Shown: piece after piece, positions 1-14,033 of the stretch
Layout: each line of letters opens with the position of its first letter
Numbering within the stretch: the stretch's first letter is position 1
Origin: Abditibacteriaceae bacterium
GTDB lineage: Bacteria; Armatimonadota; Abditibacteriia; Abditibacteriales; Abditibacteriaceae
Length of the DNA: 14,033 nt
Direction: 5' to 3'
Assembly (NCBI GenBank): GCA_031372065.1
Contig: JANMKN010000119.1
Span: 1-14,033 of the forward strand
The notes under the pieces: generated by a model
Database searches by the model: none
The model's input: the letters and a program-made list of their open reading frames with translations, nothing else
What the model was told of the DNA's origin: nothing
Position numbers and translations under genes: made by a program

Positions 1-21
1 CAGGAAGTAGACAATCACCCA

Positions 22-72
22 CAGGCCCAGAGCCGCGATTCTCCAATGGAGAATCGCGGCTCTATTGTTTTT
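22..72 (+). terminator. Conserved CAGGCCCAGAGCC-hairpin-T-tract element, copy 1
   Basis: CAGGCCCAGAGCC at 22-34; perfect inverted repeat AGAGCCGCGATTCTCCA (29-45)/TGGAGAATCGCGGCTCT (47-63); then ATTGTTTTT; GAGGAG RBS at 78-83. Confidence 0.8.
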
Positions 73-89
73 ACTTTGAGGAGACAATT

Positions 90-1163
90 ATGAAATTGTT
101 TGGACTAAACCGGAAACCGGAAGTGCGCGGCGAAGTTGCAACCCCACAAACACAAGGGGAGCAGACTGATTTCGCGGGCCGGGCACAGGCTATGAACGCG
201 CGCGCTGCGACAGCAACCACCACGGAAGATGCCATTAACGTCATGCAGGAAGCTGCTGGCATCACAAACGACCTGATGAAAGCTGTCTCGGCTATGGCGG
301 CTCCCAACCCGACAGAGCCGACAGACGAAACGACAGACGAGCCAACGGACGAAACCATTGGAGATGATGCAACGGCCCCTGACACTGCTGCTGCTCCTCC
401 CGCCTCCGATGCTGAGGCGCCTGCGGATGCAACTCCCGAAGATGCAACCTCGGCGACAGAGGATGACCCTGATAACGCACCGAAGCTGGCTAAATCTGTT
501 GAAGAATTGCTGGCCGAGGCCAATCGCGTCGCACAGGACAATGGCGCCGAACTTCAGGTGGACGCCTCTTCCTTGATTGGCGCGCTTTTGAAATCGGTGG
601 CCGCCAGTCAAGAACAAACCGAAACGACCAACAATTATTTGGAGCAACTGGGCGCGCTTCTCTCAAAATCACTCGAAGGCCTTTCCGCAATTGCGGAAAA
701 TCAGCAAGCCTTGCACGAAACCCAAGTGGCGCTTAATGAGCGCCTTGATCGCTTTGAAAACGACCAGCGTGAAGGCGCGATTGCTGCCGATAATCAGCCG
801 GAACAGCTTGCCAAGTCGGTAGAAGCGATGCTCCAGCCGATTATCGGTTATGTGAACTCGCAAAGGCAGGCACCGCAAGGAACGCCCGCCGGACGCGCGC
901 CGCTGGCGCCGAATTCCGTGGTTGGGGTTAGTCTGGCCGATGCTGCGCCGCTCATTGAGCCGGAAGTCGAATCATTCAACGGCTTTACGCGTGCTGAATT
1001 AAAGAAGAGCATCGAGGTGCATATTCGTTCTGACCGCGCCAAAGAAACTGGCATTAACTCCCAGCATTTTTTGGCGATTGGCCGCACGCCGCTTTCCGAA
1101 CTTGATCCGTTGATTTATGAAATCGCGGCCAGGGAACTAAAGCGGCCTTTACCCGGCAATTAA
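90..1163 (+). CDS. Putative capsid scaffolding/internal head protein (357 aa)
   Basis: GAGGAG RBS; acidic, Ala/Thr/Pro-rich disordered N-half and helical middle; directly upstream of the major capsid gene; six L-x-K-[S/A]-[V/L/I] motifs. Confidence 0.7.
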   Translation: MKLFGLNRKPEVRGEVATPQTQGEQTDFAGRAQAMNARAATATTTEDAINVMQEAAGITNDLMKAVSAMAAPNPTEPTDETTDEPTDETIGDDATAPDTAAAPPASDAEAPADATPEDATSATEDDPDNAPKLAKSVEELLAEANRVAQDNGAELQVDASSLIGALLKSVAASQEQTETTNNYLEQLGALLSKSLEGLSAIAENQQALHETQVALNERLDRFENDQREGAIAADNQPEQLAKSVEAMLQPIIGYVNSQRQAPQGTPAGRAPLAPNSVVGVSLADAAPLIEPEVESFNGFTRAELKKSIEVHIRSDRAKETGINSQHFLAIGRTPLSELDPLIYEIAARELKRPLPGN

Positions 1164-1280
1164 CCGCAGTTTTCACACATTCAAACATTCCAGAGCGCCA
1201 AATAGCCAAAGGCTTTAGCTTCCCGCTTCATAGCTACCAGCTTCAAGACGCGCCATTTCGCATTTAGTGAGGAAAACACA

Positions 1281-2783
1281 ATGGATTTCCCCAATGGTAA
1301 TACGCTGAGTTGGAAAGACTTTCAAAAGTCGATCTCAGCGACGTATGAAACGCGTTTTGGCGCGGACGTAGCGGCTGGCATGGCCGAGGCGTTCATGGAA
1401 AGCGCTCTGGAAAAGGGTTTGGCTTCGACTGGCACGCAGGCCATCGCCGGTGTGACAACGGGCGGCGACGCCACCACAATGGAATCGCTTTATGATGAGG
1501 TCGTTTCAACCGAACTCAACATGAAGGATCACGCCACCATCTGGAACGATTTGCAGAAAATTCCGGTTTTCGAAGAATTTGTGCAGAAGGTGGACATGAA
1601 CTCCTACGGCGGTTTCCGTCGTGGCGGCTTCATTAACCCCAACGTCGCCAGTGGCGGCGTAACCGGACGCGTGCCCAATCTCAAGCGCGCCGGCATTCCT
1701 GTTCGCTGGGTGGGCGGGCGCTTTCAAACGTTCACCAACTTGAACAGCCAGCGCACGCTCGGCCTCAACACCGACCCGGCAATTGGCAACGCCACCGAGA
1801 TCAACTCGGAAGCTCGCTTGCAGCAGATGATTCTCAACGCCAACGAATTGTGTTGGCATGGCGACAACGACATCAACTCGCTCGAACCAGAAGGCATTTT
1901 GAAGCAGATTCGCGGGCACTATAGCAAGGCCAAGCCAACGCGCCTTGATATGAAAGGCCAGCCGATCACGCGTGATTTCGTGCCGACGCTGCGCACTATG
2001 TTGCGCCTTTCCGGTGGCAACTGGACGCATTTCTACGGCGCGCCCACGATGTATAACGACTTGGAATTATCCATGCTCGGTGACATCCGCCGCGCGGACG
2101 GTCAGGCTGCCACGCTCGGTATGTATCCCGAAGAGGCTTTGATTCGGGACTTGGGCGGCAAGCGTGGCACCTCGCAACTGCGCGAAGACCAATTCTTGGA
2201 AGGCCTCGGCGATGAGCCGACTGTCGGCGACGACGGCGCGCCCACGCGTCCCTCGGCGGTCACAGCCGCAGCGGCCACCAACGCCGCAGGTACGAACTTC
2301 TGGGGTTCCAACTTGGCAGCGGGTGTTTATTACTATTCTGCTGCCGCAGTCGGCATCAATGGCCGTTCGGCCATTCGCGCGTTGACTGGTAGCGTGACGG
2401 TGACCAGTGGTCAGGCTGTAACACTGACCATTACCAATGCCGATGCCGGAACGGTCTTCTTTGAGATTTATCGCGGCACAACGGCCACCAACCGCAAATA
2501 TCTCTATCGTGTCACCGCCGAAGGCATTGACTCCGGTTCGACGCAGACTTTCAAGGACGATGGCGAATGGGTGCCGAACTGCTCCACTGCCGTTGCGCTA
2601 ACGATTCGTCCGATGCGCAAATGCCAGAGCATTCACATCGCGCAGCTGCTCCCCACCACCAAAGTGGAATTGCCGCCGGAATTGATGGCGCGTGAAGCTG
2701 GCTGGATCTGCGGCTTTACACCGCGTGTGATGAACGAAGTTCACAACGTCGAAATCGTCAACATTGGCCGTTACACCGGCTAA
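1281..2783 (+). CDS. Major capsid protein, SPO1/Twort/phage K-like (500 aa)
   Basis: GAGG RBS at 1269-1272. Motifs recall Herelleviridae capsid proteins: GGDATTMESLYDEV (cf. AGALRREILDDQI), IWNDLQKIP, PNLKR, ELCWHGD...LEPEGILKQI (cf. EWASFYGD...LEFDGLAKLI), Ig-like insertion YYYSAAAV...VTLTI...EIYRG, and IAQLLPTTKVEL (cf. FELLPMMKLPL). Confidence 0.9.
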   Translation: MDFPNGNTLSWKDFQKSISATYETRFGADVAAGMAEAFMESALEKGLASTGTQAIAGVTTGGDATTMESLYDEVVSTELNMKDHATIWNDLQKIPVFEEFVQKVDMNSYGGFRRGGFINPNVASGGVTGRVPNLKRAGIPVRWVGGRFQTFTNLNSQRTLGLNTDPAIGNATEINSEARLQQMILNANELCWHGDNDINSLEPEGILKQIRGHYSKAKPTRLDMKGQPITRDFVPTLRTMLRLSGGNWTHFYGAPTMYNDLELSMLGDIRRADGQAATLGMYPEEALIRDLGGKRGTSQLREDQFLEGLGDEPTVGDDGAPTRPSAVTAAAATNAAGTNFWGSNLAAGVYYYSAAAVGINGRSAIRALTGSVTVTSGQAVTLTITNADAGTVFFEIYRGTTATNRKYLYRVTAEGIDSGSTQTFKDDGEWVPNCSTAVALTIRPMRKCQSIHIAQLLPTTKVELPPELMAREAGWICGFTPRVMNEVHNVEIVNIGRYTG

Positions 2784-2807
2784 AATCGGCGATGGAACCA
2801 ATTAACT

Positions 2808-2846
2808 TTAAGAGAGATGTGCTACTCAATAGCACATCTCTCTTAA
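2808..2846 (+). terminator. 17-bp perfect hairpin after the capsid gene (terminator or 3' mRNA-stabilising stem)
   Basis: TTAAGAGAGATGTGCTA (2808-2824), loop CTCAA, TAGCACATCTCTCTTAA (2830-2846); no clear T-tract. Confidence 0.65.
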
Positions 2847-2881
2847 TTCAAATCTATCAAGAGAATTTCTGAAGAGATTTG

Positions 2882-2914
2882 AAAACCCACCAATATCCAC
2901 CAAAACCCACCAAT
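2882..2914. repeat. 10-bp imperfect tandem repeat (~3.3 copies)
   Basis: AAAACCCACC-AATATCCACC-AAAACCCACC-AAT. Confidence 0.75.
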
Positions 2915-2941
2915 TTCAGGTAAAAACAAAGGAGTTTTTCG

Positions 2942-4162
2942 ATGAAACGACATCTGAAACAAAAACATTGCTTATTACTATTTGCTGCCTTGTTGAGCGG
3001 CATTTGCTTTGCCTTGCCTTGCGCCGCCATTCCCCGTGCGCCTATTCCCTGCGCGATTCCGACTTTGGACCTTACGGTGAACCATGGTTCACAAAACGTC
3101 GTGACGCGCTATAATAAAGCGCGAATCTCTTTGTCCGGCTTCACTCTTCCCCTGCCGGAGGGAAAGGCAAAAACCATGTCCAACGTGCCAGAAACGTCTC
3201 CAAGCACATCCGTCATTCCACGCGATACGGATGGCACTCCGTTATCCTCGACACCGATCATATTGCGCGGCTCTCAGCCGATGCGCCCTGCTGAAAAGGT
3301 GCCACTGGTCAAATTACAATGCTCCGATTCATTCGAGCATATGTGGGGTGAACCAACACAAACCGGCGCGGGACAAGCGCACATCGGCGCCGACGGCGTG
3401 GTGTTGGAACCAGCGCCGATTGCCAGTGCCTTGCTGAAAGTTTTCGTGGAAGACCCTAAAACTAAGGTGCGCGACTTTGTTTTCAAAGCAGCGACTGACG
3501 CTTATTTGAAAATTGTCGCCGATTACGAGAAATCCCTTTCTCGAAATCCACAGACGGATGAAGATTTTGGGCCTTTGGTCATCATTGAATGCCCGACTCT
3601 GGCTGGGGAACAGACGACCACGCCGGCAGGCACGACGATTGACTTTGATGCGCAGGGCATCGGTATCACTGGCGAGCGCATTTATCAGCAAATGCGTCCG
3701 GCGTTTGCTGGCGATGGCACCAACACCACCAAAGATGCTCACGAAATCTTTTTCCGGGGTTATGTGGAATCTGCTAACGAAAGTGCGAACGAAGCACCTA
3801 ATGAAACCGCTGTCAGCGAAGCGCCTGTTGGAGTGGACAACGCAGAAATGCGTCAGTCTGATAGTGAATCAAGCAGCGGTTCACAGCCGCCCTTGCCGCC
3901 CTTGCCTCCCTCGTATGAGGATGGTGGATTGCTCGCGCAACGTCTGTCTGCTGTGATTGGTGCCGACAAGGTCAAGCTGCTAATCGATGCAGGTTTGACT
4001 GATGTAATAAGACTGTCAAATGCAATGCACGACAGCAGTTTTCCCAAGGGCTTCGGCGCGGCCAGCGTCAAAAAGCTGGAGGAGTTTTTGACTGCGGAAC
4101 TGGACACTCCCACAGATGTTCCCGCAAACACTCAGACGCCCGAAACGCCAGACGCTTCGTAA
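2942..4162 (+). CDS. Phage protein with internally duplicated small domain and C-terminal helix-hairpin-helix; second in-frame start at 3176
   Basis: AAAGGAG RBS before ATG 2942 and GGAGGGAAAGG before ATG 3176. GADKVKLLIDAGLTDVIRL...KGFGAASVKKL fits an HhH (RadA/NusA-type) pattern. LVKLQC...WGEPTQTGAGQAHIGADGVV resembles LVIIEC...AGEQTTTPAGTTIDFDAQGIG. Confidence 0.7.
   Translation: MKRHLKQKHCLLLFAALLSGICFALPCAAIPRAPIPCAIPTLDLTVNHGSQNVVTRYNKARISLSGFTLPLPEGKAKTMSNVPETSPSTSVIPRDTDGTPLSSTPIILRGSQPMRPAEKVPLVKLQCSDSFEHMWGEPTQTGAGQAHIGADGVVLEPAPIASALLKVFVEDPKTKVRDFVFKAATDAYLKIVADYEKSLSRNPQTDEDFGPLVIIECPTLAGEQTTTPAGTTIDFDAQGIGITGERIYQQMRPAFAGDGTNTTKDAHEIFFRGYVESANESANEAPNETAVSEAPVGVDNAEMRQSDSESSSGSQPPLPPLPPSYEDGGLLAQRLSAVIGADKVKLLIDAGLTDVIRLSNAMHDSSFPKGFGAASVKKLEEFLTAELDTPTDVPANTQTPETPDAS
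3077..3092. promoter_or_regulatory. 16-bp perfect palindrome GTGAACCATGGTTCAC, candidate operator
   Basis: Perfect palindrome, identical copy at 7410-7425; contains GAAC-N4-GTTC; overlaps a candidate -35. Confidence 0.55.
3088..3115 (+). promoter_or_regulatory. Candidate sigma70-type promoter upstream of ATG 3176
   Basis: TTCACA (3088-3093), 16-nt spacer, perfect TATAAT (3110-3115). Confidence 0.5.
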
Positions 4163-4181
4163 ACTGATTTATTCGCATTAA

Positions 4182-4232
4182 CAGGCCAAGAGCCGCAATT
4201 TCCTAAAAGGAAATTGCGGCTCTTTTGTTTTT
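4182..4232 (+). terminator. Conserved element, copy 2
   Basis: CAGGCCAAGAGCC at 4182-4194; 17-bp stem AAGAGCCGCAATTTCCT (4188-4204)/AGGAAATTGCGGCTCTT (4208-4224); then TTGTTTTT; AAAGGA RBS before ATG 4260. Confidence 0.8.
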
Positions 4233-4259
4233 ATAAGAAAAAATCTGAAAGGAAAACCG

Positions 4260-4700
4260 ATGGCAAATCATTTTTTAGATAATGTGACGGATATGTTCCC
4301 ACCCGAAGAAAAGCGCGTGGCGAAACCAAAAGACACGAATTTGCCTGATAATTTGGTCTGGCAATCAACAGGCCGCGCCGCCTCGCGCCTTGTGACCCAA
4401 GATTTTACGTTAGCGGTCGCTCTCTTATGTGCTGGATGGGAGGCGCCGGATTTGACTCCCATTGGTCACTCCAAGCGTGGCAGACTGCGCGTTTCCTTTA
4501 GTTTTCCTATGCCAAAAGGCCACTCCCAAGCCGCTGTCGAAGATAAATTCCTCCGCAAAGAAATGCGTGCAGAGGTGAGTCGCGTTTTTGCGGAATCGCA
4601 ATCGTTAAAGGCGCGCATTTATCGCTTGTCGCGTTCATTAGATGAAAACGCAGCCAATGACACTGGGAATCAAGAAAGCAGCGAACCGGACGGGCAATGA
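4260..4700 (+). CDS. DUF5659-like small protein (146 aa), possibly nucleic-acid binding
   Basis: Pattern TQDFTLAVALLCAGW...RVSFSF...LKARIY recalls DUF5659; AAAGGA RBS; basic segment SKRGRLR. Confidence 0.55.
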   Translation: MANHFLDNVTDMFPPEEKRVAKPKDTNLPDNLVWQSTGRAASRLVTQDFTLAVALLCAGWEAPDLTPIGHSKRGRLRVSFSFPMPKGHSQAAVEDKFLRKEMRAEVSRVFAESQSLKARIYRLSRSLDENAANDTGNQESSEPDGQ

Positions 4701-4732
4701 ACTGAATGGGTAGGGAAGGGCGATAGGTTTAT

Positions 4733-5593
4733 ATGGCAAAACCCCTGATTGTCAGTTCCGCGCAAGTGCGCAAGGCTCTGGCTGGAGCCTCCATGCAGCG
4801 TTTCATCAGCGCGCTTGGCGCAACGGAAGAAGAGCGCAACGCCGAAATCGAGACTTTAGTGCGCGAATCACAAAGCGAGTTTGAAACGCTTTGCGGCGTG
4901 CATCTTTTTGAGACCCGCATCATCTCCCGGCCTGCGGCGGCGACTCTGACGCGCCGCACCGCGCTGGATGCCAATGATTACGACAAACTGGAAGACGGCT
5001 ACACCTATTTCGCTGATGATTTCCGGCGCGGGCCGGTTTCCGTGCGTTTGCGTAAACGCCCGATTGTGTCGGTGCAGGGCGCCTCGCTGTCTTGGGGTAA
5101 TACTGTGCAAGGCAAGCTGCTCGAATTTCCCCAAGACTGGATGGGCGCCGACTCGCGTTTGGGCAATTTGCAAATCATGGCGGTTTTTGGTTCTGGCACT
5201 CTGCGCATCAACAATGGCCTGTTGATGCTGCCGGTCTTGGGGGCCATTATGCAAAGCGGCGCCGTTCCGCTGCTCTTTTGCATCCATTACACGGCGGGTT
5301 TTCTGCCTTATGATTTCAATCCCGACACGGATGATTTGGATGAGGCGTGCCCCGACTTTGAAAATATTCGCATGGTCGCTGCTGGTGTCAAAGCGCTGAC
5401 CGCGCTCAAAGTCCTGAAAAATACGCGTTTTGCCAAAGGCGCCGGTGGCGGCGCTGTGGCGATTGACGGCATCTCGCAAACTCATCAAGCCGGACGCTTT
5501 GCCGATGAAATTCAAACGCTGGCCGATGATGTCAAAAATGCCAAAACTGCACTGAAAGAATTTATGGGCGGCGTGGATTTCATGTTTGCGTAA
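4733..5593 (+). CDS. Head-tail adaptor/neck protein (286 aa), phage K/Twort-like
   Basis: VRLRKRPIVSV, FPQDW, IHYTAGF and C-terminal AIDGISQT...EIQTLADDVK...LKEFMG recall the neck protein downstream of Twort-like capsid genes; synteny agrees. Confidence 0.75.
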   Translation: MAKPLIVSSAQVRKALAGASMQRFISALGATEEERNAEIETLVRESQSEFETLCGVHLFETRIISRPAAATLTRRTALDANDYDKLEDGYTYFADDFRRGPVSVRLRKRPIVSVQGASLSWGNTVQGKLLEFPQDWMGADSRLGNLQIMAVFGSGTLRINNGLLMLPVLGAIMQSGAVPLLFCIHYTAGFLPYDFNPDTDDLDEACPDFENIRMVAAGVKALTALKVLKNTRFAKGAGGGAVAIDGISQTHQAGRFADEIQTLADDVKNAKTALKEFMGGVDFMFA

Positions 5594-5618
5594 AAGGCTT
5601 TGTAAAACGCTTTGTATC

Positions 5619-5828
5619 ATGCCACTTTTTGTGATTCCACATTCTTTTAGTTTAGGCCTCTGGTTGGTTGTATTTGCGGTTGTGGGGTGGCGTTCGTTGG
5701 ATGAGCGCCAAAAGACCATCCTTGACGACGATGATTTTCCAGTGGGCTTTGTTTGCGTCATTGTTTTTGTATGGGGCGTGTGCCTGATAGTCTCCACTGG
5801 CGCTCTCTGGGTCTTCTCCGGCCTATAA
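5619..5828 (+). CDS. Small membrane protein with two hydrophobic helices (69 aa from ATG 5619; track start TTG 5586)
   Basis: FSLGLWLVVFAVVGW and PVGFVCVIVFVWGVCLIVSTGALWVF separated by a charged loop (RSLDERQKTILDDDD); fills the gap between two neck genes. Confidence 0.6.
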   Translation: MPLFVIPHSFSLGLWLVVFAVVGWRSLDERQKTILDDDDFPVGFVCVIVFVWGVCLIVSTGALWVFSGL

Positions 5829-5868
5829 AAATAAAAGGGGGACAAAGGTAAATCCAAGGTAAATCGAA

Positions 5869-6558
5869 ATGGCAGACGCGTGGATTGACATAGATGCAGA
5901 CGACATTGCCGAACTTGTGGCTGATCGCGGCGAATTCGTAGATGTTTATCGCGCCACGCCTTGCCCCTCGTGCCTCAATCAGGATGCCGCCAACGAAAGT
6001 TCGCGCGTCGAAGGTTGCCCTTATGGCTGCGAGGATGGGCAAATCTACGCTTTACTCGAATTGCCTGACGATGTAGTTGTTGTGATTTACGACTACAACA
6101 AGGGTGTCTGGCGCCCCGAATTTGGCCGCGTGCCTTCCGGCGAAGCGAAATGGATTAGCATGGCGGCGCAAGTGACACTGGGCAATCAGGATCGTGTGGT
6201 TTTAAAAGACCGTGAGGAAGAAGCGCGGCAAACTGTCAAACGCGGCGTTGACACCTTATCGCATCCTTTCGCATTCGAGGTCTTACGAGTAGAGCAAGGC
6301 TTAACGCAATTTGTGGAGGGCGACGATTTTGAATTGGTGCCAGGCACACAGGACAATGCCGGCAATCCCTTCACGCCCTCCTCCATTAACTGGCTGACCG
6401 ATGGCCCGGACGTAGACGAGAATTACTCCGTGTCTTATCTTCGCCGTCCGCGTCTCATTTATCGCGGTGATGATATGCGGCCCGCGCGCCGTAATTTCAC
6501 CGGCGATCAGCTGGTGCAACGTTTAACACTCACGATTCTGCCACTGGCAAATGGATAA
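5869..6558 (+). CDS. Head-closure/neck protein with putative Zn-binding cysteines (229 aa)
   Basis: LVADRGEFVDVYRATPCPSC...GCPYGCEDGQIY recalls the DRG...CPC...CPRCHG motif of the Twort-like protein that follows the adaptor; AAGGT RBS. Confidence 0.7.
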   Translation: MADAWIDIDADDIAELVADRGEFVDVYRATPCPSCLNQDAANESSRVEGCPYGCEDGQIYALLELPDDVVVVIYDYNKGVWRPEFGRVPSGEAKWISMAAQVTLGNQDRVVLKDREEEARQTVKRGVDTLSHPFAFEVLRVEQGLTQFVEGDDFELVPGTQDNAGNPFTPSSINWLTDGPDVDENYSVSYLRRPRLIYRGDDMRPARRNFTGDQLVQRLTLTILPLANG

Positions 6559-6560
6559 GC

Positions 6561-7379
6561 ATGAATACTTTCAGCGTTCATTCATGGGGGCGAGAAGGCG
6601 TAAACGGCGCAATGGAAACTCCCTTATCAACTCCCTTATCAACTCCCTTATCAACTACCTTGGGGTTTGCGGTGCCTCGGTCTGGAGAACCTGGAGAATC
6701 AAGCGAAGTAGCACCCATCGGGCAAATTGGGCAAATCACGCGCGCGCTGCCCTCGTTGCAGAATATCGTGCGCGTGGTCGGCCATCCCTCGATGCGTATT
6801 TTTCAGGATAGCAATGGGTGGACTGTTTTGGCCTTGCGGCGCAATATCTCTCGCATGGTGGAACTGGGCCAAAGCGATGTGCAGTTCATCCAGCAGTTTG
6901 GGGATCGTGTTTTAGCGCAATTAAAAGCGATGTCGCGCGGGCCACTCACAAAAAGGGATTTGCGCCGTTTGGGGCATCCTTACGGCTTTAATCGAAGTGG
7001 CGCGAATGGTCGTCAAATAAAGACAACACGCGCGCTGCCGCGCCGCGTAAACGGCAAATCCTTAAACCACGTCCAAGGCGTGCGGGGCAGTGTGCCCACG
7101 CTATCGATCATAAACAAACAATCCGGCGCGCTTGAAAAAGCGTGGCATTGGGATTGGGTGCGCGATGAAAATGGGTTTGAAATCCGTTTCTGGAACGAAA
7201 TGCCCTATGCTTTCCAATTGGCAAAAGGCACTAAGAAGATGCAAGCGCATGGCCCGTTTTCGTATGCACCCTTGCAGAATTTGCGGCAACTGGACAGCCA
7301 AATTCAGAGTGTCATCAGGCGCGTTCGAAGCCGCCAAATCGCCGAAATGATGACGGAAAACGTATTCGCCGTGTTGTGA
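6561..7379 (+). CDS. HK97-gp10-like neck/tail-completion protein (272 aa; start uncertain, alternative ATG 6792)
   Basis: Basic protein with QSGALEKAW...NEMPYAFQLAKGTKKMQAHGPF, matching the TGxL...PYA...GTxKM...PF pattern; ATG is 2 nt after the upstream stop. Confidence 0.65.
   Translation: MNTFSVHSWGREGVNGAMETPLSTPLSTPLSTTLGFAVPRSGEPGESSEVAPIGQIGQITRALPSLQNIVRVVGHPSMRIFQDSNGWTVLALRRNISRMVELGQSDVQFIQQFGDRVLAQLKAMSRGPLTKRDLRRLGHPYGFNRSGANGRQIKTTRALPRRVNGKSLNHVQGVRGSVPTLSIINKQSGALEKAWHWDWVRDENGFEIRFWNEMPYAFQLAKGTKKMQAHGPFSYAPLQNLRQLDSQIQSVIRRVRSRQIAEMMTENVFAVL
6617..6656 (+). repeat. 12-bp tandem repeat AACTCCCTTATC x3.3 (encodes TPLS x3)
   Basis: Exact copies at 6617, 6629 and 6641 plus a partial copy. 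Confidence 0.9.
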
Positions 7380-7440
7380 ACTGACTATTGTGAATTATGG
7401 TGAACTGTTGTGAACCATGGTTCACAATGGTTCACAATGG
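7374..7440. promoter_or_regulatory. 20-bp palindrome TTGTGAACCATGGTTCACAA (7408-7427) inside a 10-bp-phased half-site array
   Basis: GTGAA at 7376, 7390, 7400 and 7410; TTCAC at 7421 and 7431; lies in the intergenic gap. Confidence 0.55.
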
Positions 7441-7497
7441 GCTTTTCCTCATGGTGGATAAATCAGTAGATAAATCAAAGGAGTTTCCAAACCAACT

Positions 7498-8076
7498 ATG
7501 CCCGATCCAATGCCGAACCCCGATATTAATGAATTATGGGCGGGACTGACGGCCAGTAACATTCGCCTTGATAAAGTCTGGGCGGGTGTGAAAGAGGTTC
7601 TCGCCGCTAAAATGCCCGGTATGGTGGCACGCTACAACACGGAAAACTCGCGCACTGGTTCTAACGCGCTGCCAAAGCCCACTGAATATTTCACCGGCGG
7701 GGTCAATTTAGATGATAAGGACAAATTGCAATTGCCGGTCGCTGTTGTCGGAAGCGAAAGCGAGTTTTTGCCGCTTGGCCCCGCTGCTCAGTCGTCGAAC
7801 AATACCACCTGTATTTGGATGGTTTACCGCGCCACGCTAACAGACGATCAGGTGCGGGATAGTTGCTTGCTCATCCATTTAGCTTTCGGTGTCATGTTGG
7901 GTTATCAGATGGGCTATCAAAATAGCATCGGGCAACGGCTCTGGACTTGCCTTTCGCCGGGAGCGGTGCGGGTCATTCCCAAAAGTGAAAAGTCACTTTA
8001 CGGCGGGTGGTATTTGAATTTGGATGTGGTGCAAGGCCCGGCGCCGAACGTCGCGAGTTTGTATAGCGGCGCTTAA
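7498..8076 (+). CDS. Putative tail terminator/tail completion protein (192 aa)
   Basis: Size and position between the gp10-like gene and the major tail gene; AAAGGAG at 7477-7483. Function from synteny only. Confidence 0.55.
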   Translation: MPDPMPNPDINELWAGLTASNIRLDKVWAGVKEVLAAKMPGMVARYNTENSRTGSNALPKPTEYFTGGVNLDDKDKLQLPVAVVGSESEFLPLGPAAQSSNNTTCIWMVYRATLTDDQVRDSCLLIHLAFGVMLGYQMGYQNSIGQRLWTCLSPGAVRVIPKSEKSLYGGWYLNLDVVQGPAPNVASLYSGA

Positions 8077-8080
8077 AACT

Positions 8081-8125
8081 GCACGCTTTAAAAGCCGCAC
8101 GCTTTAAAAGCCGCACGTTTTAAAA
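8081..8125. repeat. 16-bp tandem repeat GCACGCTTTAAAAGCC x~2.8
   Basis: Exact copies at 8081 and 8097; partial GCACGTTTTAAAA at 8113. Confidence 0.85.
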
Positions 8126-8132
8126 TTTCGCG

Positions 8133-8141
8133 TGTTAAAAT
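8133..8141 (+). promoter_or_regulatory. Candidate extended -10 (TGnTAAAAT) upstream of the major tail gene
   Basis: TGTTAAAAT; the same GTTAAAATAA occurs at 13802-13811 before element copy 4. Confidence 0.3.
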
Positions 8142-8196
8142 AAAACAGAGATTGAATATCGAGAGCCGCCTCAGAGATAGCGGCCCCATTTTTTTG

Positions 8197-8243
8197 CAGG
8201 CCCAGAGCCACATTTCCTTTTTGGAAATGTGGCTTTTGTTTTT
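8197..8243 (+). terminator. Conserved element, copy 3
   Basis: CAGGCCCAGAGCC at 8197-8209; stem AGCCACATTTCC (8206-8217)/GGAAATGTGGCT (8223-8234), extendable by G-U and A-U pairs; then TTTGTTTTT. Confidence 0.8.
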
Positions 8244-8270
8244 ACGTTATGGGCCAAAGGGGTTACAGCT

Positions 8271-9296
8271 ATGCCAGCAACAGTTGCAGAAGCAACATAT
8301 GGTGGATTGCTCGCGCGAGGCGGGCAAGTTGGCTTTGCCAAATTCGCTCTGGAAACAAACAACGGCACCGGCGGCGCGGGCATGATCACGCCGGGTGTGG
8401 AAACCTTGCCCGCCGCGCCCAGTTCACTGGCGAACATCGGTTACTGCGATGTTCCCACCTTCCAAATCGGGCAAAACGGCGGCGAAATTCGTGGTGTCGG
8501 TGCCTACCGCGCTCTCAAGCTCACCAAGGGTCGCCGTGATGTGACCGTGCGCCAGCAAATGCGCATCGGCAACTACGGCTTCTTGCGCTATGGTTTGCGC
8601 AGTGCCGGACTCGGCGGCACCAGCACATTTATGGGTTTGCCCGTTTTGTGTGTGGGTGGAGGTGCGCTCGACCAGTTCGGGGCCGGGTTCTCGTGGTTGG
8701 CGCGTTATGCGTTGATGCGTGAATTCAGCTTCACGTTCACCGACCAGCCCAATTCGCCGGTGACGGCCTCGGCAGAAATGTGGGCGATTGCGCTGGATCG
8801 CGTCGGAGCGGCTCAAGCCACAACGGGTCTGCCAGCAGCTTTAGTGACCGCTGGTGGCGAACAACTGATGTGGCAACACGCCCGCTGGTTGTTGGATGTC
8901 GGCGGTGACTTAACCGAATTCAAGAGCATTCTGAAATCGGTTACTGTCACCGTTACTAACGAACTGGAACGAGTGAACACCAACTTCGATTGGGGCGACG
9001 ATAACCCGCTTTCGCGAACGGCGATTCAAATCACGCCGCTGTCGGAAACGGTTAAAGTGACGTATCAGTTGCATGATATGCTGCCACCCGATTTCTTAGA
9101 TGCGGCGGCTAATTCCACCAACATGGGCGCTATCATTTTGGAAGCAACTGACGCTAAAGCCGGCGGAAGTAAAACCATGACTTGCACCATTGATAACAAC
9201 CTTATTAATGGTTTTTCGCTACAGGGCGTGGCGCCCAATGCAAAGATGGAATTCAGCATGGACACCATGTCCAGTTTCATCACGATTTCGGCGTAA
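8271..9296 (+). CDS. Putative major tail (tube) protein (341 aa from ATG 8271)
   Basis: AAAGGGG RBS at 8256-8262; beta-rich alternating patterns (REFSFTFT, VTASAEMW, KSVTVTVTNELE, VKVTYQL); follows the terminator-like gene; flanked by hairpins like the capsid gene. Confidence 0.7.
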   Translation: MPATVAEATYGGLLARGGQVGFAKFALETNNGTGGAGMITPGVETLPAAPSSLANIGYCDVPTFQIGQNGGEIRGVGAYRALKLTKGRRDVTVRQQMRIGNYGFLRYGLRSAGLGGTSTFMGLPVLCVGGGALDQFGAGFSWLARYALMREFSFTFTDQPNSPVTASAEMWAIALDRVGAAQATTGLPAALVTAGGEQLMWQHARWLLDVGGDLTEFKSILKSVTVTVTNELERVNTNFDWGDDNPLSRTAIQITPLSETVKVTYQLHDMLPPDFLDAAANSTNMGAIILEATDAKAGGSKTMTCTIDNNLINGFSLQGVAPNAKMEFSMDTMSSFITISA

Positions 9297-9300
9297 CAAA

Positions 9301-9331
9301 AATGGCTGCCCTGTTTTGCAGGGCAGCCATT
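9301..9331. terminator. 13-bp perfect hairpin after the tail gene; T-tract only on the minus strand
   Basis: AATGGCTGCCCTG (9301-9313), loop TTTTG, CAGGGCAGCCATT (9319-9331); preceded by AACAAA, so the minus strand reads GCCATTTTTGTT. Confidence 0.65.
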
Positions 9332-9369
9332 CCATGCCACTTGGTTCGATTAAGATGGCAAAACGCCAA

Positions 9370-9409
9370 CACCATTGATAACAACCTGATTAACAAGTTC
9401 TCAATGCAG
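9370..9409 (+). pseudogene. 40-nt diverged fragment homologous to the 3' part of the major tail gene (9185-9224)
   Basis: 31/40 nt identical, first 18 nt exact; translates TIDNNLINKFSMQ versus TIDNNLINGFSLQ. Confidence 0.75.
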
Positions 9410-9472
9410 TTTCAATTCCATATTTCAATTCCATTGTGGCTGTGCCTGTAAACAAAATCTTACCAAATTCCT

Positions 9473-10825
9473 ATGTCTTTCGATCCCAGTAACGACTATT
9501 CTGAATTTGATAACGTCGGCAGCGGTCTTAATGGAACGATTGAAGGCCTCATTAACATTGATGGCTCGGCGTCCGCGTTTCGTTATCGTAAAGTTCTACA
9601 AATCATCTTTTTAGGTTCCGTCTCCGATAATTTCTCGATAGTTGTTAGGGGAAATTGGACGGTTCGCATTCGCGAAAACTCCGAGCGCAATCCCGATGGC
9701 TCGTATAAAGGCGCCATTCTTTTTGAGCAGGAAGTGACGTGGGAAGCCGATATTATCGCTTTTAATTTCGGCGGTATTGACTTTGTGACGTGGGCGCCAC
9801 GCGGCCCCGCTGGATCTGGTGAACACAAAACCAGCATCGTGAATGGCGAAGCCTGCGCCGTTGTGACTGATGTAAACGCGGGCAACGATGCCGAATTGGC
9901 TGCTTATGGTGAAACAGGAGCATGGCGCTTTCTGGATAACAGCGCGGTTCGCCCGACATTTACGCCCGGTCAAAAATACGATGTCGAGCGTGGCTTTGTG
10001 CCGACAGAAAGTTTCAATCCCACGGGCGTGGCCTCCATCGGCGGCTTTGTCTTCTTTTGTGAGTGGCAAAGCGCTGATTATTTAGGCGATGCTCCTGAAG
10101 GCGCCATATTCGAAACAGTTTTCGATCATTGGCAAGTTGGCACCATCGACACAGAAGCGGGCTACACATTTTCCTACAAGGCAGGCGATGAATTATTCGA
10201 CGGATTGCGCGATGTGTGGACAGGACAGGGATGGTGGTTTCATAGGGCAGAGGGCGCCATGCGTTGCGCCCGCACGCGGCGCGATGAAAGTTTCGTAGCC
10301 AATGACGATGACCCGGCGGTTTTAAGTGGCGCTTTTGGCGCGTTTCGGGCCATTCAGCACGGACACAATCTTTTTGTAGTGCATCAGCAGGGCGCGGGCA
10401 TCGGCCTACGCTATTCGTTGGACGATGGCCGCAACTGGGAGGGGATTGACAATATGGTAACCGGTGTCACGCAAATTGACGCGATTCGTGATAGCAGCGG
10501 TGGCTCGTTATTGATTCTGGGCAAGGCAAAAACAGCTTTAACAGGGACGGAAGTGATAGGAACCGTTGCCGCTTCCGATTTGGTGCGCGTGCTACTGTGT
10601 TCTACCGAAGAGACCAATGAGACTGGCCTACCAAAACTGTGGAAAGTCAAGGAAATCTGCAAAATTAGCTCGGCTGATTCTACACCGTTGCCCGCGAAGC
10701 CCAAAGGCCGTTTAACCAGAATCGGCACGGGTTTGGAGTGGCTCATTCAGGATGGCTCCGACATCAAAGTGTGGCAGTCCCTCGACGGCGGCCTGACGTG
10801 GACGTTTATCCCATCAACAAACTAA
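9473..10825 (+). CDS. Putative virion/tail protein with Asp-box (BNR) motifs (450 aa)
   Basis: SLDDGRNW (10415-10438) and SLDGGLTW (10778-10801) fit S-x-D-x-G-x-T/N-W; beta-rich; no clear SD before the ATG. Confidence 0.6.
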   Translation: MSFDPSNDYSEFDNVGSGLNGTIEGLINIDGSASAFRYRKVLQIIFLGSVSDNFSIVVRGNWTVRIRENSERNPDGSYKGAILFEQEVTWEADIIAFNFGGIDFVTWAPRGPAGSGEHKTSIVNGEACAVVTDVNAGNDAELAAYGETGAWRFLDNSAVRPTFTPGQKYDVERGFVPTESFNPTGVASIGGFVFFCEWQSADYLGDAPEGAIFETVFDHWQVGTIDTEAGYTFSYKAGDELFDGLRDVWTGQGWWFHRAEGAMRCARTRRDESFVANDDDPAVLSGAFGAFRAIQHGHNLFVVHQQGAGIGLRYSLDDGRNWEGIDNMVTGVTQIDAIRDSSGGSLLILGKAKTALTGTEVIGTVAASDLVRVLLCSTEETNETGLPKLWKVKEICKISSADSTPLPAKPKGRLTRIGTGLEWLIQDGSDIKVWQSLDGGLTWTFIPSTN

Positions 10826-10841
10826 AGAGTGAAGGGCGATT

Positions 10842-13490
10842 ATGCCAAGTGTCAAAATTAAAGAACGCGCCGAATTCCAGATTCGGGCCTACACCGCCGA
10901 TTATATTCCCAGAGTGACCTCGCATCATTTTTCGATTGCGGACGTTTTTCAACAGTTACTTTTTCGCGATCAAGGCGAAAGCTCACGTTTTTCTCTGGAT
11001 GACACCGATATAGCCCAATCGTGGGGCCGTCAATCGGAATTTCGCTCTATCTCCAACGAAGCCCAATTCGTGTTTTTGGGAGACCGCGTTTATTTTGGCG
11101 CCGAAGCGATTCGGGCAGCGCATAACGCCAAAGCGGATAGCTCGGCTATTTCAGGGTTCTGGCCCCGCCCTTATGTGTTTTATCAAAACTGTGTGATGCA
11201 GCCGGCCTTGCCCAGAGAACCCAAAGGCAATGCCGAATTCTCCAAGTTGCGTTGGAAGTCAATCAGGGGCGTTTCGGTAGGTGGGCGCACGCGGTGGGAA
11301 ACCTACAAGCCGCTCCGTTGGCCGGACGCTACTTTTATCACCCACTCTGCCCAGACTCCCAACGCCATTGTCGAAGCGCAAACCATTGATCTACTGCCAG
11401 CGAATCAGCAATTCTTGACATCGCTTCTGTGGCGCGGCGTGGCACGCGGGCAAAAGGCGCCGCCCGCTTCGCGCGTGATCTTCGGGAGTGGCGCGCTTTC
11501 AGTCAAATTTCATTATCAGGCGCCAGCGACGGTTGAATATTGGCAGAACAACGATTGGCACAACTGGAAAACCCTTGAAGGCGCGCCGGTGCCAACGTTT
11601 GACAACGAAACGCAAACCGAACTTGCCATTTTGCGCATCGCGGGCCGTCTCGTCGTCGGCGTGGATAATCACTTTTTTGAATTGTTAGGTTCCACAGCGG
11701 CTCTGGGGACGGGAACTGATGCCAATGCGACATATGATCTGGTTGATGTGGGCTGGGCAAGGGGCCCCATTCGCGTGCGTCACTTCGGCGTGTCGGCGGA
11801 AGCAGGAATTTCCAAGTTGCTGCACCTCGCCAAACTTGATGAGGGTGAGGAACAGCCCATCGGCTCACCGCGCGGTTATAAACCGCTCGCGCCGGAAATT
11901 GAGCGCGATGTGAACCGGCCCGGCCTGACGCCGCGCATGGATGAGGAGGCAAACGCCACAGAAGGCACGCCGTATGGCTGGTTTAAAGAAGGCACAAAGG
12001 CCGAAATCAGCGCGGAAATTCAACCGAATAAAGTGCATTATAAGGTCAAATTACGCGCTTCGAAGGATGGCATTGTCGCACCATTCGTAGATAAAGTCGT
12101 CGCGCGCTATTTGGGCTTATTTACAGTAGATAATGCGCCATACATTGATATTTCTGAGGCTTGCACAACCGGACGCGAGACGACAGCGTTCCCGCCTCAT
12201 TCGCCGGGAGCGGAGTGGTCTATCAATGTCAATCGCGGCGTTTTGCTCCGTAAATTCGCCACGGCCATGCAGGAATACGTCCGCCAATTCAATCCTATTG
12301 AGATTTTAATGCGCTGGCGTTTTGAGGATGGCACCTACTCAGAGTGGGTCGGGCGATTGCATGGTTACATCAATATGATAGGGCTTTCGAACCCACGCGC
12401 TAATGACTGGCAAATGACGTTGCAATTGAAAGACTCAATCATGCGCCTGATGAAGCCACATAGCGTGATAGACCATCGTTATTATGCGCTGGATTATCTG
12501 CTCTTCCAATTGCGCGGAGCGCCGCTGTTTGGATGGCGGTGCGTTAAAGAGATTTTGGCAATTGAACTGGGAGAAGAGGAAGCGAATCGCTTAGTGGCGT
12601 ATTTCGCGCCGTATCATTACCCCTTGCTCTCGCCGCAAACTGATACGGTTGGTGCGTTTCAACATCCGCTCATGCAACCGCCGCGTGGTCGCGGTTTTTA
12701 TTTGAATCCGCCTTGGTGGGGCACGGCCTTGGAGTGGATTAACAATACATTTTGCAAAGCCGACTACGCCATGCTTTTTTACGGCTATCCAACCGGCACT
12801 TTAACTGGAAGTTCGCAGATAACTGGCGCCACGATTCCCATTACAGGCACGCAAAATTTGGCAACGCCTTGGCCGGTGCCGATTTACGGGCAGTATCCGT
12901 ATGTGATTGCCAACCGGCCAACATGGAAGATTCCTGATGCCAGCTACGCCGCTGGCGATGTGAATCTGGTCGCATTTTTAATGGAAGTGACCGGAATGCC
13001 GGAAGAACAAATTAACCGTGTGCTGGTGTCCAGCACTTTAGGGGGAGGCAGCGCCGATTTACCTGTGCCTTCGGTTCGCATTGCCGAGCGCGTTTTGCCT
13101 GATGACGATCCCAATGCGGCTATTTTTAGCTGGGCGCGCACGTTGGTGCATCAGGGGCCGCAATACTTTTATCCCGGCGCGGCTGAAATCCATGCGGATC
13201 AGGTGATTCGCTTATATCGCGGCAAGACGATTCGACGGTGGAAGTTTGATTGTCGCGGTGAGGAGCGTATGCAGTGGGGAGATCTTGCGACGCCAGTGAT
13301 GATGAACAGTGGCAGCAGCGGCAACTATTCGGATCCAACACTTTCGGATGTTCTAACGCCGGGACTTGGCATTCACGGCGAAAAGTTCCGCATTTGGCGT
13401 TTGGTGAATCAGTATAATTTTCATGGCAGCGGCGCCGAACAAATTAAAACGAGTGGCACTTGCCTGCCAGTATCAGCGTTGGGTTTTTGA
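10842..13490 (+). CDS. Putative tail-tip/baseplate hub protein (882 aa)
   Basis: GAAGGG RBS; C-terminal INRVLV...RGEERMQWGD...FRIWRLVNQYNF resembles the end of phage hub/Tal-type proteins; position in the tail module. Confidence 0.55.
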   Translation: MPSVKIKERAEFQIRAYTADYIPRVTSHHFSIADVFQQLLFRDQGESSRFSLDDTDIAQSWGRQSEFRSISNEAQFVFLGDRVYFGAEAIRAAHNAKADSSAISGFWPRPYVFYQNCVMQPALPREPKGNAEFSKLRWKSIRGVSVGGRTRWETYKPLRWPDATFITHSAQTPNAIVEAQTIDLLPANQQFLTSLLWRGVARGQKAPPASRVIFGSGALSVKFHYQAPATVEYWQNNDWHNWKTLEGAPVPTFDNETQTELAILRIAGRLVVGVDNHFFELLGSTAALGTGTDANATYDLVDVGWARGPIRVRHFGVSAEAGISKLLHLAKLDEGEEQPIGSPRGYKPLAPEIERDVNRPGLTPRMDEEANATEGTPYGWFKEGTKAEISAEIQPNKVHYKVKLRASKDGIVAPFVDKVVARYLGLFTVDNAPYIDISEACTTGRETTAFPPHSPGAEWSINVNRGVLLRKFATAMQEYVRQFNPIEILMRWRFEDGTYSEWVGRLHGYINMIGLSNPRANDWQMTLQLKDSIMRLMKPHSVIDHRYYALDYLLFQLRGAPLFGWRCVKEILAIELGEEEANRLVAYFAPYHYPLLSPQTDTVGAFQHPLMQPPRGRGFYLNPPWWGTALEWINNTFCKADYAMLFYGYPTGTLTGSSQITGATIPITGTQNLATPWPVPIYGQYPYVIANRPTWKIPDASYAAGDVNLVAFLMEVTGMPEEQINRVLVSSTLGGGSADLPVPSVRIAERVLPDDDPNAAIFSWARTLVHQGPQYFYPGAAEIHADQVIRLYRGKTIRRWKFDCRGEERMQWGDLATPVMMNSGSSGNYSDPTLSDVLTPGLGIHGEKFRIWRLVNQYNFHGSGAEQIKTSGTCLPVSALGF

Positions 13491-13527
13491 TCAGCGCTGG
13501 GTTTTTCAGAGAGGTTTTTAAACAAGC

Positions 13528-13764
13528 ATGGCAACTTACATTGACATCAGCCGGGATGAAAATGAAGCGCGTCGCTCAGAGGACACCGTAGAACGCGCTG
13601 TGAACACAATGCTGGATGAAGGCGCGGCGCGGGCAGCGATTCGTCAAGGTGGCTCCCCCTCTGTCCCGGCTCCAATGAAAAACGCCGAGGGTGAACCATT
13701 CTTTCTTTTTGGCGAGGCGCTGGTAGATGAGGATGGCAACGGGCGGGCGTTGGCACCGGGTTAA
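13528..13764 (+). CDS. Hypothetical phage protein (78 aa)
   Basis: ATG ORF co-oriented with the operon; GAGAGG upstream; protein-like composition. Confidence 0.65.
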   Translation: MATYIDISRDENEARRSEDTVERAVNTMLDEGAARAAIRQGGSPSVPAPMKNAEGEPFFLFGEALVDEDGNGRALAPG

Positions 13765-13826
13765 ACCCTATTGGGATAACCGCCATTCATTTCGCCATTG
13801 GGTTAAAATAATTTTCAATTCAATTT

Positions 13827-13885
13827 CAGGCCCAGAGCCGCCAATTGCGCGATGAAAAATCGCGCAATTGGCGGGTTTTTGTTTT
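13827..13885 (+). terminator. Conserved element, copy 4
   Basis: CAGGCCCAGAGCC at 13827-13839; 16-bp stem CCGCCAATTGCGCGAT (13838-13853)/ATCGCGCAATTGGCGG (13859-13874); then GTTTTTGTTTT; AAAGGA RBS at 13891-13896. Confidence 0.8.
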
Positions 13886-13904: not shown

Positions 13905-14033
13905 ATGAACGATCAAGGTAACATCCTAAACAGCGAAGCGAACACAAAGTATTACGGTGGCTCAGTGAGCAATGGTTCGGTGCCATCGCATCCAATTCCG
14001 CCTTCAGGCCCAGAATTCTTAGTGGCTCCGGTG
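13905..14033 (+). CDS. 5' part of a hypothetical protein truncated by the window end (MNDQGNILNSEANTKYYGGSV...)
   Basis: AAAGGA RBS, ATG at 13905, 43 open codons to the edge; not in the ORF track. Confidence 0.7.
   Translation, partial: MNDQGNILNSEANTKYYGGSVSNGSVPSHPIPPSGPEFLVAPV

Follow-up and report, generated by a model that had tools for sequence, protein, structure and literature searches.

A short box fused to predicted late-operon terminators in probable phage-plasmids of Abditibacteriaceae, and its possible role as an antitermination gate

A 14,033-nt stretch of Abditibacteriaceae DNA (the window; contig C408 of the 6.1-Mb, 410-contig genome G000) raises a simple question: why should the same short sequence stand at the foot of four terminator-like hairpins, each of them just ahead of a gene? 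The sequence is a real, phage-specific box, varying between lineages and fused to the predicted terminators of late operons. Somewhat better than even, in our estimate, are the chances that these boxed hairpins are antitermination gates, set site by site before late gene blocks and opened by a phage-made factor.

The four-copy repeat described in the original prediction, which was made from the letters of the window, is genuine: CAGGCCMAGAGCC is found without a mismatch at 22, 4182, 8197, and 13827, each time on the plus strand, while shuffled versions of the window gave 0.55 ± 0.75 matches to this 13-mer with two mismatches tolerated. The copies head the four longest and top-ranked terminator-like hairpins in the window (14–17 pairs, with U tails; in order of rank, 29–63, 13838–13874, 4188–4224, and 8204–8236), each overlapping the 5′ arm of its hairpin. 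Start codons at 90, 4260, 8271, and 13905 follow 17–27 nt past the U tails, as had been proposed.

Copy 1 (23–72, plus strand as are the others) has its box at 24–34 (GGC-CCAGA-GCC), stem arms at 29–45 and 47–63, and a U-rich tail, and precedes an ORF at 90–1163. Copy 2 (4183–4233; box 4184–4194, GGC-CAAGA-GCC; stem 4188–4204/4208–4224) lies 20 nt past the stop of the upstream gene, with an ORF at 4260–4700 and head-tail connector genes on its 3′ side (plus strand). Copy 3 (8198–8243; box 8199–8209; stem 8204–8236) precedes an ORF at 8271–9296 and has a −10-like TAAAAT with a TG extension 57 nt upstream (8136–8141, plus strand). Copy 4 (13828–13885; box 13829–13839; stem 13838–13874) precedes an ORF starting at 13905, with another −10-like TAAAAT 19 nt upstream (13804–13809, plus strand); its box is intact, but there is a G·G mismatch at the stem base, so the stems are not, as had been thought, perfectly paired throughout. 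Nor do the copies share one operon: a box-less hairpin (2808–2846) and a promoter-like site (3088–3115) intervene, and copies 3 and 4 have a TAAAAT of their own. A second, weaker hairpin (GAGCCGC...GGCC) at ~8165–8190 precedes the box of copy 3, ahead of the probable tail-tube gene; it has counterparts at the same place in G001:C728, G023:C91, and G022:C145 (four phages in all), with 12–20 nt between hairpin and box.

To judge from gene content and synteny, the window probably belongs to a P1-like phage-plasmid of ~100 kb, carried by an Abditibacteriaceae host. C408 and contigs C282, C284, C38, and C370 of the same genome show synteny with one contig of a relative, the 107,091-bp G023:C91, which encodes RepA, ParA, ParB, a tyrosine recombinase, a DarB-like protein, terminase, portal, protease, capsid, and endolysin. 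An Abditibacteriaceae bacterium has the closest named homologue of the window's major head protein; searches detected the capsid in five of 27 genomes of the family, and the same five are the only ones among 401 genomes of the phylum with a near-full-length match (the G006 capsid is 41% identical). Capsid searches of IMG/VR yielded no confirmed relatives. No letter differences were seen in the DNA contigs from three runs of one study. A 91% identical overlap between G000:C284:20046–20146 and window 1–101, within which the copy 1 stem differs between the two contigs, suggests that C284 and the window contig are neighbors derived from strain variants.

Across five related phages 43 copies were collected (G000, 11; G001, 9; G023, 11; G022, 5; G006, 7), every one of them sense to the late genes. 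All 11 in G000 are on the five phage contigs listed above, one of them, on C284, being a 91% identical variant of window copy 1, which leaves ten distinct places; the ten best matches of a covariance model scanned against the genome are all phage copies. The element is thus biased in both strand and position, and is not a host-wide repeat. In G023, copies precede the terminase block, endolysin, portal, a 1890-aa helicase, the DarB block, protease, capsid, the connector block, a probable tail tube, a chaperone, and a holin-like gene, while none precedes the replication or partition genes (rep, par). Boxed hairpins stand at orthologous places across the phages. A terminator scan blind to the motif found 20 plus-strand hairpins in G023:C91, of which 11 are boxed, and 12 late-strand hairpins in G006:C4, five of them with a different box, GGCATTACGCC or a close variant. 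There are seven copies of this G006 box (GGC-ATTAC-GCC) in total; for six, the gene that follows is a homologue of one that is gated in the other phages. A tRNA-like gene (L031:14939–15044, in G023:C91) is found just upstream of the boxed hairpin before endolysin.

Because the G006 boxes carry another loop at homologous sites, the conserved part is best described as GGC-N4-6-GCC with a lineage-specific loop. The original 13-mer is not itself the conserved unit: its leading C is found in only 14 of 39 copies and so falls outside the family core, an 11-nt GGC-N5-GCC. The pattern GGC-N4-6-GCC is present in 39/43 copies and GC-N4-6-GCC in all 43. Loops are near-uniform within a phage and differ by lineage: CMAGA here, CNTGA, and ATTAC in G006. 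Two loop positions vary freely in G023 and G022.

Elsewhere the arrangement is scarce. Ten stretches with single 14-mer matches (in G002, G007, G009, G012, G017, and other G023 contigs) include no boxed terminators; a strict box-terminator pattern has no match in IMG/VR; and a relaxed one, GGCC-NN-GAGCCG at the terminator, has 34 single-copy loci there, fewer than either of two control tetramers (at least 120 and 68). A set of 80 metagenome loci and two others with distantly related terminases (781,524 bases) gave 12 scattered box-plus-hairpin matches. Rfam produced nine matches in the window, all sub-threshold and chance-like, and only a tRNA in G023:C91 and three G000 contigs; the element matches no Rfam family in the window. 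A description of such an arrangement in phages was not found in the literature, with subscription journals thinly covered and supplements outside the scope of the search.

The hairpins themselves are strongly maintained. In the 33 of 43 copies that were aligned, 98.4% of 386 stem cells are paired, falling to 41–55% in controls with the stem slid; eight of 12 pairs show two-sided change, and none of 500 shuffles reaches the covariation score, in agreement with the compensatory change originally reported. At the foot of the stem, the lowest G-C pairs join the last GCC of the box to the GG before the U tail; the GAG of the 5′ arm is conserved while its 3′ partners vary (G-C/G-U, one mismatch). 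All 43 copies have 6–9 T in the 10 nt past the stem base. As predicted structures the copies have the build of intrinsic terminators, a G+C-rich stem followed directly by a U tract; stems are up to 18 bp and stand just before ribosome-binding sites. Host terminators have the same build with an A tract in place of the box: in the same scan, GGC-N4-6 lies upstream of the GCC..GG-based hairpin in 7 of 227 host cases vs. 8 of 8 in the phage.

The upstream GGC can pair with the same GCC to form a 3-bp mini-hairpin (39/43), predicted at −2.2 kcal/mol. Against a mean of −28.3 kcal/mol for the full fold it could not outcompete the terminator unaided. When the box is blocked, however, mean folding energy rises from −28.3 to −14.5 kcal/mol (39 copies) and the stem shifts away from the U tail. 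In nascent RNA lacking the 3′ arm the mini-hairpin has a mean probability of 0.41 (42 copies, a value without a shuffle control). The consensus elemental pause and the ops element share the spacing G-10, Y-1, G+1; in the boxed copies G-10, C-1, and G+1 coincide in 38/43, with G-11 in 35/39.

Promoter-like sites lie on the upstream side. The −10-like hexamer TAnAAT is found within 110 nt upstream of 20 of 37 copies, compared with 4.9 ± 2.0 in shuffles (maximum 10) and five on the opposite strand, and upstream of 22 of 41 in a larger set; within 60 nt downstream it occurs in 0/43. Genes 3′ of the hairpins therefore probably need read-through for their expression. About half of the copies are in promoter leaders, and the remainder, window copy 2 for example, are between co-directional genes.

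A phage-specific palindrome with the core GAACCRYGGTTC is present in seven copies on the G000 phage contigs, vs. none in 6.07 Mb of host sequence. Sites with this core are at window 3077–3094 and 7410–7427 and also in G000:C282, C284, and C370, in G023:C91, and in G001; G023:C91 has nine GAAC-N4-GTTC sites, and the palindrome is often near late promoters. At 3077–3115 of the window (plus strand) it overlaps a promoter-like TTCACA-16-TATAAT (3088–3115). Identity with the host SOS box was rejected, the palindrome being missing upstream of lexA and recA. These are candidate dispersed ParB sites, like those of N15, or repressor operators.

How might the boxed hairpins work? On our reading, the default would be for host RNA polymerase, having started at the upstream promoter or come in from the upstream gene, to stop at the hairpin. 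At a late stage of lytic growth the nascent box, probably folded as the GGC:GCC mini-hairpin, would be bound by a small phage protein, aided by a pause at the box end. Binding would keep the GCC from the 3′ arm; the residual 6–14-bp stem would then close 3–6 nt too distant from the U tail, and the polymerase would read on. Such a gate would act locally rather than processively, which is favored by the fact that every gated stop has a box of its own while box-less stops, like the one 3′ of the capsid gene, persist. A more specific version, in which some ten independent minimal attenuators per genome are opened by a new family of small RNA-binding antiterminators, box and protein coevolving into orthogonal pairs, is tentative and distinctly less probable; possibly a zinc-ribbon-like protein encoded beside the terminase operon is that antiterminator.

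Several points weigh against antitermination gates. The 43 copies were collected by hand, mostly by motif similarity, from phages that are kin, so the conservation counts are partly circular and their independence is overstated. In four of the 43 an AGC replaces GGC and the outer pair of the mini-hairpin is lost; no covariation was detected in the mini-hairpin, and it is worth only the −2.2 kcal/mol given above. The −10-like hexamer test was controlled by shuffles and not by other intergenic regions. Searches for a factor acting on the box yielded a single candidate, described below. There is one NusG per genome in all five, never on a phage contig, and no paralogue was found, although a highly divergent one could escape such a search. 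Proteins with a CAT_RBD domain are absent from the five genomes (85–94% complete), while 4/14 controls score over the cut-off; no ANTAR domain is over the cut-off in these five, yet none is in the 14 control genomes either. Neither a Q nor an N family is among the best five families per ORF for 106 ORF pieces of G023:C91 and 130 chosen from G006, G000, and G001 (ORFs of at least 70 aa). Among 22–110-aa ORFs of G023 and G006, the only ones shared across phages, other than the candidate described next, are small genes of the tail region.

This candidate (G000:C282:8456–8797) encodes 113 aa with CxxC and CxxxH motifs and lies directly upstream of the terminase block. It is found in six of 401 genomes, namely the five phage carriers and a remnant in G021, and has distant homologues that come without gene context; no homologue was found in the 82 distant terminase loci surveyed above. 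Its structural model is confident (pLDDT 84.9) but its fold has no firm match (best E 1.0 in PDB, best Z 2.8 in VIA). The best viral entry, a 67-aa protein named Elf1-like (E 0.17, TM 0.73 of target), is a lead toward a zinc ribbon and nothing firmer. The G021 and G022 homologues lack these cysteines and are coupled to the terminase operon directly, without an intervening box, so the gene may instead serve in packaging. In G021 the gene is present, yet no boxed hairpin was seen in 83 kb of sequence; this remnant of the same phage (G021:C11:154744–160395), near a contig end, retains the zinc-ribbon-like gene, a small terminase, and an interrupted large one. By position, the zinc-ribbon-like gene is weakly supported as the best candidate for the factor.

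Others were set aside. A gene of 136–144 aa 3′ of one box was at first suspected of being the regulator, but its product looks like a membrane protein of holin type. In G021 and G022 the ORF preceding the zinc-ribbon gene is missing from that location, and in G006 it is broken. The terminase block opens with a gene whose product has an arginine-rich tail; that gene overlaps the small-terminase frame, however, and gives a poor model (pLDDT 57.5). Sequence searches of the Atlas and PDB returned no match.

The strongest alternative, which the original prediction did not consider, is that these are constitutively leaky terminators: the mini-hairpin or the pause would delay stem closing so that a fixed share of polymerases passes, with promoters setting the timing and the hairpins tuning or stabilizing the transcripts. 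The phage-specific palindromes near several promoters could provide such timing, and a mini-hairpin with a predicted probability of 0.41 in nascent RNA would suit it. The main ground for it is the IsrK terminator, which is partly read through according to PMC4825925. The Rfam isrK consensus has GGC-AAACA-GCC at its terminator foot. Twenty of the 34 relaxed IMG/VR loci were scanned with Rfam, and four of these, unrelated prophage loci just upstream of a C4 RNA, carry GGCCAAGAGCC at the terminator foot (isrK scores of 26–36 bits, with a cut-off of 50). These loci (L185, L191, L197, L207) combine an isrK/a1b1-like leader, the GGCCAAGAGCC-footed terminator, and the C4 RNA. Such GGCC-NN-GAGCCG terminators are not enriched in IMG/VR, however, as the control tetramers show, so the likeness may be due to chance. 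A device needing no factor gives no reason for one loop per phage and another in its relative, and a leaky stop 15–80 nt past a promoter would be wasteful. We consider leaky terminators unlikely, though no other alternative does better.

Rather less probable is loading of the ops kind. RfaH acting at ops licenses long operons by overriding termination, with a pause-like spacing at its site; here polymerase would pause at the box, where a phage elongation factor would read the non-template DNA and then make the enzyme terminator-proof in the manner of RfaH or Q. The match to the pause and ops spacing would fit, as would the 11 copies 14–24 nt past a −10-like hexamer. A processive factor, though, would have no use for repeating the box at each internal stop or for letting it overlap the stem, the single NusG of each genome is on host contigs, and the G023:C91 ORF pieces gave no Q-family match among their best five families.

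Should the element not be a stop signal at all, it might be an RNA-processing site, a 5′-stabilizing leader, or part of a late promoter. Long stems just before ribosome-binding sites would suit the first two, and phage P1 has dispersed late promoters activated by Lpa. The build, however, is that of ordinary host terminators, with GCC..GGC and 6–9 U in 10 nt in 43/43 copies, and the distance from hexamer to copy ranges from 6 to 79 nt, unlike a promoter element. Late-gene antitermination remains the best-supported reading, and the original prediction is supported in part, while its promoter and processing alternatives are weakened to the point of being improbable.

Control by antisense RNA as in P1 C4 or P4 CI is more doubtful again. 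It is suggested by the four IMG/VR look-alikes, 10–20 nt upstream of C4 RNA, but an Rfam scan of the window, G023:C91, and three G000 contigs (C284, G001, G006, and G022 lay outside it) detected no C4, an a1b1-like loop is upstream of only one of the 43 copies, no exact box stands free on either strand, and the two freely varying loop positions of G023 and G022 are not what antisense pairing would favor. Least probable of all, plain terminators may have been copied around the genome with the box as passenger, and copying of hairpin sequence does happen, as shown by G006 copies that reuse a host palindrome present 879 times, but stem interiors have diverged while the box is kept, and no promoter-like site lies past the stem for the downstream genes (0/43). 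That palindrome, of 16 bp, forms the interior of the boxed stems of the G006 phage and is absent from G000 and G010.

The ORF at 90–1163 (plus strand) encodes an acidic protein of 357 aa and lies between the head protease, on contig C284, and the capsid gene, a position suggesting a scaffold. The major head protein is encoded at 1281–2783 (plus strand; phrog_752, E 4.5e-32), followed by the perfect 17-bp hairpin without box (2808–2846, strand unspecified); a box-less terminator occupies the equivalent place in G023, G022, and G006. The product of the ORF at 8271–9296 (plus strand) has no library match and is a probable tail tube by position and conservation, and the ORF from 13905 (plus strand), which runs on into contig C38, is putatively tail chaperone-like. 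Short tandem repeats occur in and between genes at 6617–6661, 8075–8122, and 7397–7438, with periods of 12, 16, and 10 nt, respectively. In G006:C4:73548–76698, read by eye, the large terminase is split by an intein-like insert with a homing endonuclease, plus a frame break.

In textbook accounts, control of phage late genes falls to activators, to sigma factors, or to processive antiterminators that load once. If true, a gate of ANTAR or RAT type, non-processive and placed before every late unit, would be a further way to coordinate dispersed operons, in a host group that is almost unstudied: of 11 papers that mention both Abditibacteri- and phage, none is on phages of this group, as judged by titles and the beginnings of abstracts. 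Because two loop variants occur naturally, specificity can be tested directly, and compact orthogonal switches could result. On this reading, the boxed gate would be a further form of protein-controlled attenuation.

Among known systems, phage P1 is similar in its plasmid-prophage gene set and in having some ten dispersed late units under one shared signal, but the P1 signal is a promoter element, whereas the box is transcribed and fused to a terminator. Lambda Q and N, and BrrG as reported (10.1101/2024.11.20.624540), license late or long operons by overriding a leader terminator; like RfaH-ops they are processive, loaded once and away from the terminator stem, and no homologue was found here. 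IsrK of Gifsy-1 (Rfam RF01394) is again a phage leader terminator, footed by GGC-N5-GCC in the Rfam consensus and partly read through (PMC4825925), but it and C4/CI occur once per phage, with a1b1 hairpins upstream and a C4-type RNA downstream, none of which is found here where scanned. The RAT elements of BglG, SacY, and LicT share a conserved sequence overlapping the 5′ arm of a terminator, and local action; as described in PMC3369931 and PMC12591593, RAT is ~30 nt with a stable hairpin of its own, vs. an 11-nt box. Conservation here begins at position −12 of the box, no such hairpin is seen, Rfam has no match in the window, and the CAT_RBD protein that RAT needs is in none of the five genomes.

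The closest working analogue is the eut ANTAR system of Enterococcus, in which, according to PMC3369931, four terminators of one locus each have their 5′ part overlapped by a 13-nt mini-hairpin. Both systems have a shared sequence of ~13 nt at the 5′ part of several terminators dispersed through a gene cluster; in the phages the 3-bp mini-hairpin is possible in 39/43 copies but shows no covariation. The box differs in having one putative mini-hairpin instead of two (an upstream hairpin is seen in 5/42 copies vs. 5.4 expected, and a strict one in 0/42), in its loop of 4–6 nt, mostly five, without the A1/G4 hexaloop, in that no ANTAR protein over the cut-off was found in the five genomes, and in its place before phage late genes rather than metabolic ones. 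Our best reading is of a system that would act as ANTAR or RAT elements do while being a member of neither.

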